Under the pieces are notes generated by a model. The model searched no databases and was not told the DNA's origin. It saw only the letters and a list, made by a program, of their open reading frames with translations. Position numbers and translations under genes: made by a program. Source: Escherichia phage T4. From it: a stretch of 64,000 bases of DNA. Positions 6,425 through 45,977 of this stretch are shown piece after piece. Numbering within the stretch: the first letter of the stretch is position 1; each line of letters begins with the position of its first letter. The stretch lies in sequence record OL964735.1; one strand, given 5' to 3'.

Positions 6425-7990
6425 ATGACTATCAAAACTAAAGCTGAACTTTTGAACAAATGGAAGCCATTACTGGAAGGTGAAGGTTTACCGGAAATTG
6501 CTAATAGCAAACAAGCGATTATCGCTAAAATCTTTGAAAACCAGGAAAAAGATTTCCAGACAGCTCCGGAATATAAAGACGAAAAAATTGCTCAGGCATT
6601 CGGTTCTTTCTTAACAGAAGCTGAAATCGGTGGTGACCACGGTTACAATGCTACCAACATCGCTGCAGGTCAGACTTCTGGCGCAGTAACTCAGATTGGC
6701 CCAGCTGTTATGGGTATGGTACGTCGTGCTATTCCTAACCTGATTGCTTTCGATATTTGTGGTGTTCAGCCGACGAACAGCCCGACTGGCCAGGTATTCG
6801 CACTGCGCGCAGTATATGGTAAAGACCCAGTGGCTGCCGGTGCTAAAGAAGCATTCCACCCAATGTATGGTCCAGATGCAATGTTCTCTGGTCAGGGTGC
6901 TGCTAAGAAATTCCCAGCTCTGGCTGCTAGCACACAAACCACAGTAGGTGATATCTATACTCACTTCTTCCAGGAAACTGGTACTGTATATCTGCAAGCT
7001 TCTGTTCAAGTAACAATCGATGCTGGTGCGACTGATGCTGCTAAATTAGATGCTGAAATTAAGAAACAAATGGAAGCTGGTGCACTGGTAGAAATCGCTG
7101 AAGGTATGGCTACTTCTATCGCTGAACTCCAGGAAGGTTTCAATGGTTCTACCGATAACCCATGGAATGAAATGGGCTTCCGTATCGATAAGCAAGTTAT
7201 CGAAGCTAAATCTCGTCAGCTGAAAGCTGCTTACTCTATTGAATTAGCACAAGACCTCCGCGCTGTTCACGGTATGGATGCTGATGCTGAACTGTCTGGT
7301 ATTCTGGCTACAGAAATTATGCTGGAAATCAACCGTGAAGTTGTTGATTGGATTAACTACTCAGCTCAGGTTGGTAAATCTGGTATGACCCTGACTCCGG
7401 GTTCTAAAGCTGGTGTATTTGACTTCCAGGACCCAATTGATATTCGTGGTGCTCGCTGGGCGGGTGAATCCTTTAAAGCTCTGTTGTTCCAGATTGACAA
7501 AGAAGCAGTTGAAATTGCTCGTCAGACCGGTCGTGGTGAAGGTAACTTCATTATCGCTTCCCGTAACGTAGTTAACGTTCTGGCTTCAGTTGATACCGGC
7601 ATTTCTTATGCTGCACAGGGTCTGGCTACCGGCTTTAACACTGATACTACCAAGTCAGTATTTGCTGGTGTTCTGGGTGGTAAATACCGCGTATATATCG
7701 ACCAGTATGCTAAACAGGATTATTTCACTGTAGGTTATAAAGGTCCGAACGAAATGGATGCTGGTATTTACTATGCTCCATATGTAGCTCTGACTCCGCT
7801 GCGTGGTTCCGATCCGAAGAACTTCCAACCGGTAATGGGATTCAAAACTCGTTACGGTATCGGTATCAACCCATTTGCAGAATCCGCTGCTCAGGCTCCG
7901 GCTTCTCGCATCCAGAGCGGTATGCCTTCTATTCTGAATAGCCTTGGTAAAAACGCTTACTTTAGACGTGTATATGTTAAAGGTATCTAA
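6425..7990 (+). CDS. 23: major capsid protein (T4 gp23)
   Basis: 521-aa ORF, recognised gp23 sequence; codon usage typical of highly expressed gene. Confidence 0.97.
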   Translation: MTIKTKAELLNKWKPLLEGEGLPEIANSKQAIIAKIFENQEKDFQTAPEYKDEKIAQAFGSFLTEAEIGGDHGYNATNIAAGQTSGAVTQIGPAVMGMVRRAIPNLIAFDICGVQPTNSPTGQVFALRAVYGKDPVAAGAKEAFHPMYGPDAMFSGQGAAKKFPALAASTQTTVGDIYTHFFQETGTVYLQASVQVTIDAGATDAAKLDAEIKKQMEAGALVEIAEGMATSIAELQEGFNGSTDNPWNEMGFRIDKQVIEAKSRQLKAAYSIELAQDLRAVHGMDADAELSGILATEIMLEINREVVDWINYSAQVGKSGMTLTPGSKAGVFDFQDPIDIRGARWAGESFKALLFQIDKEAVEIARQTGRGEGNFIIASRNVVNVLASVDTGISYAAQGLATGFNTDTTKSVFAGVLGGKYRVYIDQYAKQDYFTVGYKGPNEMDAGIYYAPYVALTPLRGSDPKNFQPVMGFKTRYGIGINPFAESAAQAPASRIQSGMPSILNSLGKNAYFRRVYVKGI

Positions 7991-8016
7991 TCTCTAACGA
8001 TAGAAACACAATTTTA

Positions 8017-8039
8017 GGGAACCTTCGGGTTCCCTTTTT
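8017..8039 (+). terminator. intrinsic terminator after gene 23
   Basis: GGGAACC-TTCG-GGTTCCC hairpin followed by TTTTT. Confidence 0.75.
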
Positions 8040-8714
8040 CTATTTTATACGATAGCAATCAGGCATATCATCCGCATTTATCCAATTGCGAATAGTTTTA
8101 GGACTAACTTTAAAATGCTCCGCTGCGTAATCAGGATTATCAAATTTAACGCCCTTTATACATATTGGAATAAATTTTTTAATACCACCAAGTTTTTCAG
8201 AAATAGCTTTACGATGTGAAATCGATATAGGTTTGTTTTTTCGTGGATGAACATGTGTTTTATAATATTCATTGCGCCCTTTAACTCGCTTCGCAATAGT
8301 TTCATCAGATTGCTTAACGCCTGTTTTTGCCTTTGATATTTTTCGTTTAGCTTCCACAGTCATTCCTTCTTTTGTTCGTATTGATAACATATTACGATAT
8401 GAAGGATCTTGCAAATGAACTATAACTGGATTTCCTCTGCCACCAATAGCAGCATTATAGGTATCAGTTCTCATAACGAATTCCTCATTAACTAGTAAAG
8501 CTTCCATTTTATACATCTCCTCAGATGAGGAGAAAGAATAAAGAATTTCTTTTTTAAAGTTATGAATACCATATTTTTTGATGGATTTTTTGATGTTTAC
8601 GCCAGAACCCATATAACCATCGTTTTCGTCAAGAGTAGCATGAGCTCCGATGTAAATTTTTCCATTGATGATATTAGTAATTTGATATATTAAATATTTC
8701 ATTTTAAACATCAC
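8040..8714 (-). CDS. segD: GIY-YIG homing endonuclease-like protein (SegD-like)
   Basis: 224-aa ORF with N-terminal YLIYQITN...NGKIYIGA GIY-YIG motif; sits between genes 23 and 24 on opposite strand. Confidence 0.8.
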   Translation of the reverse strand: MMFKMKYLIYQITNIINGKIYIGAHATLDENDGYMGSGVNIKKSIKKYGIHNFKKEILYSFSSSEEMYKMEALLVNEEFVMRTDTYNAAIGGRGNPVIVHLQDPSYRNMLSIRTKEGMTVEAKRKISKAKTGVKQSDETIAKRVKGRNEYYKTHVHPRKNKPISISHRKAISEKLGGIKKFIPICIKGVKFDNPDYAAEHFKVSPKTIRNWINADDMPDCYRIK

Positions 8715-8766
8715 TCCGTTTGTATATGATTATAATATCATATTACTTTGGTCTTGTAAATAACTT

Positions 8767-8774
8767 TATAAATA
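8767..8774 (+). promoter_or_regulatory. late promoter TATAAATA for gene 24
   Basis: exact motif 27 nt upstream of ATG 8802. Confidence 0.7.
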
Positions 8775-8801
8775 GTATTATATTTCAACAAGGAAAATAC
8801 A

Positions 8802-10085
8802 ATGGCTAAAATCAACGAACTTCTGCGCGAATCAACCACAACGAATAGCAACTCAATCGGTCGCCCAAATCTCGTTGCTTTGACTCGCGCTACCACTAAA
8901 TTAATATATTCTGACATTGTAGCAACGCAAAGAACTAATCAACCTGTTGCTGCTTTTTATGGTATCAAATACCTTAACCCAGACAACGAATTTACATTTA
9001 AAACTGGTGCTACTTACGCTGGCGAAGCTGGATATGTAGACCGAGAACAAATCACAGAATTAACAGAAGAGTCTAAATTAACTCTCAATAAAGGCGATTT
9101 ATTCAAATATAATAATATCGTTTATAAAGTATTAGAAGATACTCCATTTGCTACTATCGAAGAAAGTGATTTAGAATTAGCTCTTCAGATTGCAATCGTT
9201 CTTTTAAAGGTTCGTCTATTTTCTGACGCAGCGTCAACAAGCAAATTTGAAAGCTCTGATAGTGAAATTGCGGATGCTAGATTCCAGATTAATAAATGGC
9301 AAACTGCAGTTAAATCTCGTAAACTTAAAACTGGCATCACAGTTGAATTAGCGCAAGATTTAGAAGCAAATGGATTCGATGCTCCTAATTTCTTGGAAGA
9401 TTTGCTTGCAACTGAAATGGCAGATGAAATCAATAAAGACATTCTGCAGTCTTTGATTACAGTGTCAAAACGCTATAAAGTTACAGGAATTACTGATAGT
9501 GGATTCATCGATTTGAGTTATGCATCTGCTCCTGAAGCTGGTCGTTCATTATACCGAATGGTATGTGAAATGGTTTCGCATATCCAAAAAGAATCAACTT
9601 ATACAGCAACGTTCTGTGTTGCTTCAGCTCGTGCCGCTGCGATTCTTGCTGCATCAGGCTGGTTAAAACATAAACCAGAAGATGACAAATATCTTTCACA
9701 AAATGCCTACGGGTTCTTAGCTAATGGTTTACCGCTTTATTGCGATACTAACAGCCCATTAGATTATGTAATCGTTGGCGTAGTAGAAAATATCGGTGAA
9801 AAAGAAATTGTTGGATCAATTTTCTATGCTCCGTATACAGAAGGTCTCGACTTAGATGACCCTGAACATGTAGGTGCATTTAAAGTTGTTGTTGATCCAG
9901 AAAGCTTACAACCATCTATCGGTTTATTAGTTAGATATGCTTTATCAGCAAATCCTTATACTGTAGCAAAAGATGAAAAAGAAGCAAGAATAATTGACGG
10001 TGGAGACATGGATAAAATGGCAGGTCGTTCAGATTTGTCTGTTTTATTAGGTGTTAAGCTACCAAAAATTATCATTGATGAATAA
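8802..10085 (+). CDS. 24: capsid vertex protein (T4 gp24)
   Basis: 427-aa ORF, recognised gp24 sequence. Confidence 0.95.
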   Translation: MAKINELLRESTTTNSNSIGRPNLVALTRATTKLIYSDIVATQRTNQPVAAFYGIKYLNPDNEFTFKTGATYAGEAGYVDREQITELTEESKLTLNKGDLFKYNNIVYKVLEDTPFATIEESDLELALQIAIVLLKVRLFSDAASTSKFESSDSEIADARFQINKWQTAVKSRKLKTGITVELAQDLEANGFDAPNFLEDLLATEMADEINKDILQSLITVSKRYKVTGITDSGFIDLSYASAPEAGRSLYRMVCEMVSHIQKESTYTATFCVASARAAAILAASGWLKHKPEDDKYLSQNAYGFLANGLPLYCDTNSPLDYVIVGVVENIGEKEIVGSIFYAPYTEGLDLDDPEHVGAFKVVVDPESLQPSIGLLVRYALSANPYTVAKDEKEARIIDGGDMDKMAGRSDLSVLLGVKLPKIIIDE

Positions 10086-10090
10086 AACAA

Positions 10091-10112
10091 AGGGACCTTT
10101 CGGTCCCTTTTT
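10091..10112. terminator. bidirectional intrinsic terminator between gene 24 and rnlB
   Basis: AGGGACC-TTTC-GGTCCCT hairpin flanked by T-runs on both strands; convergent genes. Confidence 0.75.
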
Positions 10113-10114
10113 AT

Positions 10115-11119
10115 TTAACTTACCAACTCAATCCAAGCTGGACGAAGTACATCTTGTACCATTTTAACTAATTCCTTTTTAATCAAAGAAGGATTATCTG
10201 CTTGAGTTAGAGTAATACCTTCACGAGAAGTTTCTTCCAAAATATCTTGAACAGTTAGCCCCATCACCTTTCCAAAATCCTTTGGACCAATTTCGCCAAT
10301 TTTAGAAATAACGTTATTTACGCGGTTCAGTGTAACGTAACAAGCTAAAATTCCCACCAATTTGTTATCAGCTTCTGATAGCTCAACTTTAGCTTTAATA
10401 GGCTTATCAGACTTTTTCTTTTCACTAAATTTAGAGTTCTTGCATTTAATCGCTACACGATTTCCATTACGAAGCCAAGAAGGATAACAAGGTTTCAATA
10501 CATATCCTTCAGCAGTAAATACTTCGCCTTTTGCTTCGGCATTCCAAACGCATTTATTTGCATCAACTAATCCAGCATGGTCTACTGTAAAATTATAATC
10601 TTGGACGACAGAATCTAAATCATTTGGCAATTTAATAAGCTCTTCAAATTTACCGCGACCTAAAAGTGGAGCCATTTTAAATTTAAATGTATTACAGAAT
10701 GATTCCATCATATAATCATCTACATAAGTCACATCACCGCTTTCTGTAGTAACAATAATGTCAAATACATAAAAATCTTTATCACCATAATCAACATTCT
10801 TCTGAATGCCAGGTCCAGCGAATTCGCCAAAGACTTGATAAGATACAACCGCTGAGGTTTCCATAATATCTTGTACAGCTTTAATGGAATCAGCATAATT
10901 CTTCAAAATAATTTCATACCCAAAGAAATCTTCAGCAGGAAGAATCGGTCCAGTGCGTTTAGCGCAAGTCACTTTATCACGCTCAATAATCAATGAGAAA
11001 TTTGTGCCGTGAATCTTTTCACGAGCTACCCACTCCCCACCAGTCAATCCCAAGCTATAAAGTTTTTCAATAAATTTAGAGTTGTAATGATTTTCAAGAC
11101 TGCTATACTTTTTAAACAT
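10115..11119 (-). CDS. rnlB: RNA ligase 2
   Basis: 334-aa ORF; nucleotidyltransferase motif I lysine in EKIHGTNFS. Confidence 0.93.
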
Positions 11120-11407: not shown

Positions 11408-11609
11408 TTTTCACCTTTTTATTGATATGTCTTTTTCTATAGACAACTTTTTCTCGAGTTTCAAATTTATTCTTAGCAGTCATAGCTCGAGCCCATAATA
11501 CAGCCACTTCTTTTGCCTGTAAGTTTAATTCACGAGCAATTTCAATGAATGACTTTCCAGACTCATGAAGAGTAAACACCACAACCTCAGTTCTCATAAT
11601 CAATCTCAT
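11394..11609 (-). CDS. hypothetical small protein, possible HTH (T4 24.3 position)
   Basis: 71-aa ORF overlapping the next ORF by 14 nt. Confidence 0.65.
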   Translation of the reverse strand: MRLIMRTEVVVFTLHESGKSFIEIARELNLQAKEVAVLWARAMTAKNKFETREKVVYRKRHINKKVKNGTV

Positions 11610-13568: not shown

Positions 13569-14186
13569 ATGTACCACTTTGTATATGAAACAACAAATCT
13601 AATAAATGGTAAAAAGTATATAGGAAAGCACTCTACTGATGACTTGAATGATGGTTACCTTGGTTCCGGTAAGGCAATTCAGCAGGCTATAAAGAAATAT
13701 GGTGAAAACAATTTCTCTAGAACAATACTAAAAGAGTTTAAAACTTCCGAAGAAGCGTACATGTATGAAGAAGAAATTATAACTCCTGAACTAATAAAAA
13801 GCAAAAATTATTATAATATGAAACCTGGTGGAATTGGTGGAATTGTTATGACTACAGATGTTATAGCAAAGATGAAAGAATCTTCCGCTAAAAGATTTGA
13901 AAACTCACCGGGCACGGTATTAGGTAAAACTTGTTATACTAATGGAACTAAAAATATTTTTATTAAACCTGGAGAACTTGTTCCAGAAGGATTTGTAAAA
14001 GGGATGGTTCATCCTAATAGAAAGTCCAGAAAAGGATGTAAAGTCAAACCGACTACCACAGGAACTTTTTGGGTCAATAATGGCGCAATAAATAAATTAA
14101 TACAACCAGACGGTATTATTCCCGACGGATTTATTAAAGGTCGTCTCATGAAAAGAGATTCTAAAGGCAAATTTAGTAAGGCATAA
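13569..14186 (+). CDS. segE: GIY-YIG homing endonuclease SegE
   Basis: 205-aa ORF; N-terminal MYHFVYETTNLINGKKYIGK GIY-YIG motif. Confidence 0.88.
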   Translation: MYHFVYETTNLINGKKYIGKHSTDDLNDGYLGSGKAIQQAIKKYGENNFSRTILKEFKTSEEAYMYEEEIITPELIKSKNYYNMKPGGIGGIVMTTDVIAKMKESSAKRFENSPGTVLGKTCYTNGTKNIFIKPGELVPEGFVKGMVHPNRKSRKGCKVKPTTTGTFWVNNGAINKLIQPDGIIPDGFIKGRLMKRDSKGKFSKA

Positions 14187-44961: not shown

Positions 44962-45977
44962 CATTATGTTCAGATAAGGTCGTTAATCTTACCCCGGAAT
45001 TATATCCAGCTGCATGTCACCATGCAGAGCAGACTATATCTCCAACTTGTTAAAGCAAGTTGTCTATCGTTTCGAGTCACTTGACCCTACTCCCCAAAGG
45101 GATAGTCGTTAGGCATTTATGTAGAACCAATTCCATTTATCAGATTTTACACGATAAGTAACTAATCCAGACGAAATTTTAAAATGTCTAGCTGCATCTG
45201 CTGCACAATCAAAAATAACCCCATCACATGAAATCTTTTTAATATTACTAGGCTTTTTACCTTTCATCTTTTCTGATATTTTAGATTTAGTTATGTCTGA
45301 ATGCTTATGATTAAAGAATGAATTATTTTCACCTGAACGATTTCTGCATTTACTACAAGTATAAGCAGAAGTTTGTATGCGAACACCGCACTTACAAAAC
45401 TTATGGGTTTCTGGATTCCAACGCCCGTTTTTACTTCCGGGTTTACTGTAAAGAGCTTTCCGACCATCAGGTCCAAGTTTAAGCATCTTAGCTTTAACAG
45501 TTTCAGAACGTTTCTTAATAATTTCTTCTTTTAATGGATGCGTAGAACATGTATCACCAAACGTTGCATCAGCAATATTGTATCCATTAATTTTAGAATT
45601 AAGCTCTTTAATCCAAAAATTTTCTCGTTCAATAATCAAATCTTTCTCATATGGAATTTCTTCCAAAATAGAACATTCAAACACATTACCATGTTTGTTA
45701 AAAGACCTCTGAAGTTTTATAGAAGAATGGCATCCTTTTTCTAAATCTTTAAAATGCCTCTTCCATCTCTTTTCAAAATCTTTAGCACTTCCTACATATA
45801 CTTTATTGTTTAAAGTATTTTTAATCTGATAAATTCCGCTTTTCATAAATACCTCTTTAAATATAGAAGTATTTATTAAAGGGCAGTCCTACAATTTAGC
45901 ACGGGATTGTCTACTAGAGAGGTTCCCCGTTTAGATAGATTACAAGTATAAGTCACCTTATACTCAGGCCTCAATTA
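44962..45977 (-). mobile_element. group I intron in td (1016 nt) carrying I-TevI
   Basis: intron begins UAAUUGAGGCCUGAG immediately after exon 1 GGU and ends in G; contains GIY-YIG ORF. Confidence 0.93.
45109..45846 (-). CDS. intron-encoded GIY-YIG homing endonuclease I-TevI
   Basis: 245-aa ORF starting MKSGIYQIKN...KVYVGSA. Confidence 0.95.
   Translation of the reverse strand: MKSGIYQIKNTLNNKVYVGSAKDFEKRWKRHFKDLEKGCHSSIKLQRSFNKHGNVFECSILEEIPYEKDLIIERENFWIKELNSKINGYNIADATFGDTCSTHPLKEEIIKKRSETVKAKMLKLGPDGRKALYSKPGSKNGRWNPETHKFCKCGVRIQTSAYTCSKCRNRSGENNSFFNHKHSDITKSKISEKMKGKKPSNIKKISCDGVIFDCAADAARHFKISSGLVTYRVKSDKWNWFYINA

Follow-up and report, generated by a model that had tools for sequence, protein, structure and literature searches.

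A candidate early-type promoter and a probable start codon for the antisense segD gene of bacteriophage T4

The segD locus and its empty-site alleles

The window analyzed here is a 64,000-nucleotide (nt) stretch of the Escherichia phage T4 genome (OL964735.1). In it, a minus-strand open reading frame (ORF) lies between two plus-strand late genes, those for the major capsid protein and the capsid vertex protein. The main features of this part of the window are as follows:

6425..7990, plus strand: gene 23, major capsid protein, 521 amino acids (aa), the upstream late gene (ORF listing; gp23 in AF158101.6)
8016..8035, plus strand: intrinsic terminator hairpin of gene 23, UUCG loop followed by a T-run (folding, z-score)
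8040..8714, minus strand: segD, longest ORF, from GTG, 224 aa (ORF listing)
8040..8702, minus strand: segD coding sequence including the stop codon, from the conserved ATG, 220 aa (ORF listing, GenBank, multi-phage comparison)
8802..10085, plus strand: gene 24, capsid vertex protein, 427 aa, the downstream late gene (ORF listing, GenBank)

The ORF listing reproduced exactly the coordinates that the initial annotation had given for the 224-aa frame starting at GTG, and its antisense placement between genes 23 and 24 agrees with both the listing and GenBank. Over positions 7900 to 8900 (1,001 nt), several T4 records agree with the window throughout (100% identity), and the reference AF158101.6 reaches 99.9% identity; there, the minus-strand ORF (complement 106561..107232; UniProt P19895) is labeled SegD homing endonuclease, a site-specific DNA endonuclease of the GIY-YIG family. 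The two match in location, strand, and product and differ solely in the assumed start codon. Judged by this nucleotide identity, the ORF is T4 segD itself, which bears out the membership in the segD family that had been proposed for it. The gene, its reversed orientation, and the question of its expression are already known from T4 publications of 2010 or earlier; the review by Edgell, Gibb, and Belfort (PMC2988022) described the antisense position and named segD as the only free-standing Seg gene of T4 opposed in orientation to its neighbors. The enzyme was characterized in 2018 (Sokolov et al. 2018, Virology 515:215, as cited in PMC9523250).

The strong gene 23 terminator noted in the initial annotation proved to be real. 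The hairpin has an 8-bp stem with a folding energy of −13.8 kcal/mol on the plus strand (z = −4.2 against shuffles), and its T-run overlaps the segD stop codon. In the minus-strand reading, this hairpin stands directly 3′ of that stop codon and folds with −14.5 kcal/mol, with a poor U-tract. In the stem of phage ECML-134, an A-U pair has been replaced by G-C in a compensatory manner, and in T2 and G28 the stems differ around the same UUCG loop.

Like segA, segB, segC, segE, segF, and segG, segD is inserted between conserved genes and is missing from close relatives (PMC2988022). A 1-kb query matched 806 phage records, 52 of which contained segD. In most Tequatrovirus relatives (T2, RB6, phiD1, ECO4, and others), only the flanks matched, 273 nt apart. 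Empty-site alleles, which the initial annotation had suggested looking for, were thus found in T2, RB6, phiD1, ECO4, and fHoEco02, all of which have a short spacer between the two genes. The spacer of the segD carriers is the following feature:

7991..8801, no strand: segD-type 23-24 spacer, 811 nt, in place of the 83-nt spacer of relatives without segD

In an alignment of 12 genomes (7 with and 5 without segD), all 20 of the fixed substitutions between the two groups fell at 7994 to 8799, the first lying 4 nt past the stop codon of gene 23 and the last 3 nt short of the ATG of gene 24, and the coding flanks held none. This distribution indicates that the whole spacer was exchanged, 811 nt against 83 nt. 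We considered a co-conversion tract and rejected it, as 250-nt windows over 9 kb (6 phages with and 5 without segD) revealed no segD-linked divergence outside the spacer; with head genes that are 97 to 100% identical, this comparison has low power. Genes 23 and 24 themselves diverge in a mosaic pattern unrelated to segD status. SegD is said to cut a 16-bp site that is identical in phages with and without the gene, and segD is said to be expressed; coding flanks that carry no linked changes would fit such a shared cleavage site. They also fit the report, as cited in PMC9523250, that SegD neither homes nor stimulates recombination (Sokolov et al. 2018).

The segD ORF is intact in six of the seven carriers. 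In PP01 it is frameshifted by a 1-nt deletion in an A-run, a homopolymer in which the deletion may be a sequencing error. Differences among the carriers comprise 16 synonymous and 5 nonsynonymous changes, and pN/pS ranges from 0.07 to 0.20 in the two most divergent ones. By these sequence counts, segD is under purifying selection.

The same gap holds other cargo elsewhere. An antisense ORF of 88 aa (phrog_6003) occupies it in G28, Bp7, IME08, and 88 further records. In the Mosigvirus LF82-1, this ORF is followed by a SegD homologue of 58% identity, which is antisense and shares the promoter module described below with T4 segD but, unlike T4 segD, sits behind the 88-aa ORF and lacks a separate promoter. 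The Pseudotevenvirus iPHaGe-KPN-12i has a SegD homologue of 41% identity in the same gap but in the sense orientation, and SegD has been reported at the same location in the Klebsiella phage vB_KpnM-VAC66 (PMC8778798). The 23-24 gap is therefore a recurrent landing site.

Domain organization of SegD and its relation to I-TevI

Two regions can be distinguished within the SegD protein:

8432..8702, minus strand: N-terminal GIY-YIG catalytic domain, residues ~1 to 90 (Pfam, I-TevI profile matches, AlphaFold2)
8043..8350, minus strand: predicted linker and C-terminal helix-turn-helix DNA-binding region, I-TevI-like (sub-threshold Pfam matches, profile match)

SegD passes the curated cutoff of the Pfam family PF19835, SegE_GIY-YIG (27.5 bits against 25), stays under that of the general family PF01541 (19.2 against 22.6 bits), and matches PHROG 314, "homing endonuclease," with an E value of 6.5e-56. 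The linker holds a weak, sub-threshold NUMOD3 motif (15.5 against 20.4), and the C terminus a sub-threshold HTH_17 match (18.5 against 27). When SegD alone was searched against the PDB, the match was marginal (E = 0.43), so that a profile of seven sequences, SegD and six phage homologues of 33 to 59% identity, was needed to match I-TevI. This profile matched the I-TevI DNA-binding domain (1i3j) with an E value of 6.8e-4 and the I-TevI catalytic domain (1mk0 and 1ln0) with E values of 0.012 to 0.023, the lower one for 1mk0. Together with the PF19835 and PHROG matches, these profile matches uphold the GIY-YIG assignment made in the initial annotation.

The SegD N terminus reads MKYLIYQITNIINGKIYIGAH and contains both the GIY and the YIG motifs (spacing criterion, ~10 residues). 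Residues Y6, Y17, G19, E67, and N83 are invariant among the homologues of 33 to 59% identity, and Y6, Y17, G19, and N83 align with I-TevI Y6, Y17, G19, and N90. By HMM as well as by MAFFT alignment, E67 is one residue off the catalytic E75 of I-TevI and stands opposite R74. At the position of the catalytic R27 of I-TevI, SegD and SegE share a 9-residue gap, because of which the sequence assigns no equivalent arginine to SegD; K43 and H21, both invariant, are candidates in its place.

The AlphaFold2 model predicts a beta-beta-alpha-beta-alpha order for the N-terminal domain (strands 2 to 10, 16 to 23, and 49 to 57; helices 35 to 44 and 60 to 71), with pLDDT values of 66 to 84. The model as a whole has a mean pLDDT of 48.8 and is usable for residues 1 to 70 alone, the C-terminal region being of low confidence. 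In a Foldseek search with this model, the best three hits were I-TevI structures (1mk0/1ln0; probability, 1.00; target-normalised TM-score, 0.56), and every other PDB chain scored 0.2 or less. The input alignment consisted of three sequences taken from the window, I-TevI among them, and the fold match to I-TevI is accordingly supportive rather than independent.

SegD resembles I-TevI in having an N-terminal GIY-YIG domain and, by prediction, a long linker and a C-terminal helix-turn-helix DNA-binding domain. Unlike I-TevI, which is encoded within the td intron, it is free-standing; the two proteins share only ~29% identity across the alignment, and SegD lacks both the zinc-finger stretch of the I-TevI linker and the nine residues that hold Arg27. 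The I-TevI gene itself also lies in the window (45112-45846, minus strand). Another family member encoded there, SegE, shares 35% identity with SegD (phmmer E = 1.4e-24). Homing has been demonstrated for SegA, SegB, SegC, SegE, SegF, and SegG (PMC2988022), whereas SegD is reported, in PMC9523250, to lack it, which also sets it apart from I-TevI. In the explanation that we favor, SegD is a free-standing protein with an N-terminal GIY-YIG catalytic domain and a predicted I-TevI-like helix-turn-helix DNA-binding region at its C terminus.

Candidate promoter and translation start of segD

The initial annotation saw no clear minus-strand promoter upstream of segD. This does not hold, as a consensus scan of positions 7700 to 9100 returned its best sigma-70-like match, an extended −10 promoter with 10 of 12 matching positions, just upstream of the gene. 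The features that bear on the transcription and translation of segD are as follows:

8732..8760, minus strand: proposed segD early promoter, −35 TTTACA at 8760-8755, 17-nt spacer, TGa, −10 TATTAT at 8737-8732
8767..8774, plus strand: gene 24 late promoter TATAAATA (late consensus of PMC1524935), back-to-back with the segD −35 element
8714..8717, minus strand: Shine-Dalgarno sequence GGAG of segD (read from sequence), 11 nt upstream of ATG 8702 and 2 nt upstream of ATG 8711
10089..10110, no strand: bidirectional terminator between gene 24 and rnlB, 9-bp stem with a T-run on the minus strand

The −10 element of the match, TTTACA-17-TGaTATTAT, ends approximately 30 nt upstream of the conserved ATG 8702. 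In the consensus of T4 early promoters, GTTTAC occupies −36 to −31 and is preceded by A-rich sequence, and a GT-rich run lies ahead of −12 (Nolan et al. 2006, PMC1524935). The segD motif agrees with this consensus in the −35 element (context aTTTACa), the 17-nt spacer, the TAnnnT form of the −10 element, the TG upstream of it, and the A-rich upstream sequence (tataaagtta). When the whole 64-kb window was scanned at a threshold of at least 10 of 12 positions plus TGn, seven matches were obtained, compared with 2.4 ± 1.6 in Markov shuffles. All four of the minus-strand matches have the form TTTACA-17-TGnTATnnT and precede asiA, alc, alt.-3, and segD, with the −10 element ending 29 to 32 nt before the respective start codon (ATG 8702 for segD). 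Both hexamers of the asiA match are identical to those of segD, and asiA, alc, and alt.-3 belong to the early class for RNA and protein alike (PMC9697503).

The gene 24 late promoter TATAAATA is also present in spacers that do not carry segD. In a comparison across genera limited to three sequences, G28 (Tequatrovirus) and LF82-1 (Mosigvirus) kept the −35 element as GTTTACA and the extended −10 element as TGnTACTAT around a diverged 17-nt spacer, and the distance of this module from TATAAATA is the same in G28, LF82-1, and T4. Because the segD-carrying phages share at least 98.6% identity in this region, conservation of the promoter among them is of little informative value.

A middle, MotA-dependent promoter and a minus-strand late promoter were also considered for segD and rejected. 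The 1.2 kb upstream of the gene contain no MotA-box promoter, the sole MotA-like match being a weak one at 9986, inside antisense gene 24, and the stretch from rnlB to segD contains no late promoter on the minus strand. Earlier bioinformatic searches gave no segD-specific promoter (PMC2988022), and we found no T4 transcription start site map, and hence no mapped segD start, in the literature. Collectively, these comparisons lead us to infer that the conserved candidate promoter of T4 early type at 8760..8732 is the one that would drive segD.

The 224-aa frame of the initial annotation stands as the longest frame but not as the protein. Three of the seven segD-carrying phages compared (PP01, ECML-134, and SHFML-11) have lost its GTG at 8714, and the ATG annotated in GenBank, at 8711 (223 aa), is GTG in SHFML-11 and OES_C-2. 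ATG 8702 (220 aa) is the sole candidate start that is invariant in all seven. The N termini of homologues coincide with it (MNYLIYKITN in LF82-1, MKYLIYQITN in T4), and the GenBank records of SHFML-11 and OES_C-2 already annotate a 220-aa SegD. Initiation at ATG 8702 gives the N terminus (M)KYLIYQITNIINGK, and initiation at ATG 8711 gives MFKMK.... The distance of only 2 nt between GGAG and ATG 8711 was pointed out as a problem in PMC2988022. Sequence conservation thus makes ATG 8702 the probable translation start of segD, with somewhat less assurance than we attach to the explanation as a whole, and the annotated start probably lies three codons too far upstream. The 11 nt between GGAG and ATG 8702 exceed the optimum, and this spacing counts against that start. 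A hairpin sequestering the ribosome-binding site, as in I-TevI and segB, was rejected as well: the leader (8727..8670) folds with −4.2 kcal/mol (z = 0.11), no better than shuffles.

Expression timing and competing explanations

Published time courses of T4 infection place segD RNA in the early class and SegD protein in the middle class (Wolfram-Schauerte et al. 2022, PMC9697503). The RNA class rests on counts not split by strand, as the library was directional and featureCounts was run at default settings. In the three replicates of the protein data, LFQ values for SegD were 0, 0, and 0 before infection; 9.4e6, 0, and 9.9e6 at 1 min; 2.4e6, 7.4e6, and 9.8e6 at 3 min; 3.1e7, 5.4e7, and 4.4e7 at 5 min; and 0.9e8, 1.2e8, and 1.2e8 at 8 min, with a plateau of ~1.5e8 from 12 min. 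The values of ~1e7 at 1 to 3 min are near the detection limit, and one replicate has no value. In the same data, SegD was the earliest of the Seg proteins (first appearance at 5 min for SegA, 12 min for SegE, and 12 to 20 min for SegB), and its plateau was at about the level of SegA and above those of SegB, SegC, and MobE. RnlB, whose gene would be upstream on any read-through transcript, had an LFQ of 0 at 1 min. As its plateau equals that of SegA, SegD cannot be called vanishingly low in expression. Even taken alone, the protein data exclude an unexpressed segD, and they argue against dependence on promoters in the rnlB region. With its apparently early promoter, segD would differ from the other free-standing endonuclease genes of T4, the Seg genes among them, to which middle or late promoters have been assigned (PMC2988022).

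Our preferred explanation, to which we assign a probability of roughly 75%, is that segD is an early-expressed unit on an alternative spacer, with its own promoter and a start at 8702. The 811-nt form of the spacer would bring a complete, reverse-oriented expression unit consisting of the early-type sigma-70 promoter at 8760..8732 on the minus strand, a short, unstructured leader with GGAG, ATG 8702, and the coding sequence, with the gene 23 terminator hairpin serving as the 3′ end. Given an early-type promoter in the spacer, we propose that host RNA polymerase would transcribe segD in the first minutes of infection, ahead of the switch-on of the late genes. In the published time course, SegD builds up from ~1 to 12 min and then reaches its plateau, and convergent late transcription may help to shut the gene off.

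The initial annotation had suggested that expression may be low or depend on antisense read-through, an idea that repeats almost verbatim PMC2988022, which proposed read-through and a "vanishingly low" transcript. In this alternative, segD has no promoter of its own and is reached by weak transcription antisense through gene 24, from middle promoters near 24.2 or from the late promoter upstream of inh. The failure of the earlier searches to find a segD-specific promoter is in its favor, as is the assignment of segD, rnlB, 24.2, and 24.3 alike to early RNA and middle protein (PMC9697503). Sigma-70-like matches are, moreover, common in AT-rich T4 DNA, and at the level of 9 of 12 positions, 7700-9100 holds 7 against 5.6 expected. 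The match at 8760..8732, however, shares its form and its distance to the start codon with those of asiA, alc, and alt.-3 and is conserved across genera, and the minus-strand terminator at 10110..10089, with its 9-bp stem and T-run between rnlB and segD, would stop read-through from rnlB toward segD. In addition, SegD was detected from 1 to 5 min, at 1 min while RnlB was 0, and reached the SegA level (PMC9697503). Low or read-through expression is consequently contradicted on several sides, and we regard it as unlikely.

The remaining alternatives concern what SegD does once it is made. It may be the relic of a homing endonuclease in decay, still transcribed and translated but without an activity of consequence for either the phage or the spread of the gene itself. 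The lack of homing reported for it (Sokolov et al. 2018, as cited in PMC9523250), the PP01 frameshift, the occurrence in only 52 of 806 matching records, and coding flanks with no visible co-conversion tract would all suit such a relic. We nevertheless consider decay improbable, as the ORF is intact in six of seven carriers, the 16 synonymous against 5 nonsynonymous changes and the pN/pS of 0.07 to 0.20 speak for constraint, homologues of 33 to 59% identity all keep the GIY, YIG, Glu, and Asn positions, promoter and start codon are conserved, and the PP01 deletion, being in a homopolymer, could reflect a sequencing error. The same purifying selection could instead mean that segD has been domesticated as an early site-specific nuclease retained because the phage gains from it, for instance by countering co-infecting relatives or by processing DNA, and not because the gene copies itself; that SegD is the earliest Seg protein (PMC9697503) while other free-standing genes have middle or late promoters (PMC2988022) would agree with this, and so would the reported lack of homing (PMC9523250) and the unlinked coding flanks. 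Against domestication, segD has no known phenotype, its patchy spread over 52 of 806 records and its location in a hot spot open to other cargo are typical traits of selfish elements, and early expression may stem simply from the promoter of the landing cassette. It is a doubtful reading for these reasons. Equally tentative is a broader version, in which segD is immediate-early, the conserved module beside the gene 24 late promoter drives any antisense cargo of the gap (segD, the 88-aa ORF, or both), and SegD is kept for an early, non-homing role, for example, on co-infecting or host DNA.

An early-expressed unit on an alternative spacer is thus the explanation that we retain. The plausible, conserved segD promoter agrees with the published proteomics, in which SegD appears early and at normal levels for a Seg protein. 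To the standard account of T4, the analysis adds small corrections but no new kind of biology; its modest by-products, namely the candidate promoter, the better start codon, and the cassette nature of the spacer, are of use for re-annotation and for the design of segD knockouts. In the T4-like phages more widely, the 23-24 spacer is a site into which cassettes are swapped, with four or more allelic states.

Sequence differences in segD, 24.3 and neighboring genes

The segD gene of phage PP01 lacks 1 nt of an A6 run (corresponding to window positions 8550-8555), which results in a frameshift, and the GenBank annotation of this gene comprises only a 477-nt remnant (L015:4141-4617, PP01). The frameshift could reflect either genuine decay of the gene or a homopolymer sequencing error.

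Differences from the T4 GenBank reference genome (AF158101.6) were also identified. The reference lacks 33 nt found at positions 11453-11485, inside gene 24.3 on the minus strand. Because this segment opens with CTCGAG (XhoI) and a second CTCGAG follows directly after it, a small XhoI fragment was probably missed in the old reference. With the 33 nt included, the 24.3 ORF encodes 71 aa, compared with the 56 aa annotated. At position 8034, in the terminator region of gene 23, AF158101.6 contains one T more than the window; the T4 records with 100% identity to the window over 7900-8900 likewise lack this extra T.

Amid otherwise near-identical head genes, gene 23 (6900-7150) and rnlB (10400-10900) constitute local hot spots of divergence. 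In gene 23 the number of differences reaches 53 within 250 nt (SHFML-11, T2, phiD1, and fHoEco02); in PP01, rnlB has 68-72 over the same length. This divergence is mosaic and bears no relation to the presence or absence of segD.

Early-type promoter matches and a bidirectional terminator

Matches to TTTACA-17-TGnTATnnT, the pattern of the promoter module proposed for segD, are located approximately 30 nt upstream of three other genes:

62625-62597, minus strand, upstream of asiA
37752-37724, minus strand, upstream of alc
24610-24582, minus strand, upstream of alt.-3

The 29-nt promoter sequence is identical at the alc and alt.-3 sites, and the leader of approximately 20 nt downstream of it is near-identical. 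The following terminator lies within the 29-nt gap that separates the convergent genes 24 and rnlB:

10089-10110, both strands, perfect bidirectional terminator with a 9-bp stem and T-runs on each strand

SegD relatives and other occupants of the 23-24 gap

Two GIY-YIG relatives of SegD are encoded within the window:

13569-14183, plus strand, segE (phmmer E = 1.4e-24)
45112-45846, minus strand, I-TevI ORF of the td intron (phmmer E = 6.8e-6)

In 91 phage records (G28, Bp7, IME08, Mosigvirus), the 23-24 gap holds an antisense 88-aa ORF that matches phrog_6003 (E = 5.8e-50) and is preceded by the same early-type promoter module as that proposed for T4 segD. In LF82-1, a SegD homologue (58% identical) directly follows this ORF. 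In Klebsiella phage iPHaGe-KPN-12i, a SegD homologue occupies the gap in sense orientation.

L004:1141-1407, minus strand, 88-aa ORF of Escherichia phage vB_EcoM-G28
L003:2231-2497, plus strand, 88-aa ORF of LF82-1
L008:2501-3136, plus strand, SegD homologue (41% identical) between genes 23 and 24 of iPHaGe-KPN-12i

Given the sense-oriented homologue, the SegD endonuclease family has evidently come into the 23-24 gap in both orientations in different genera.
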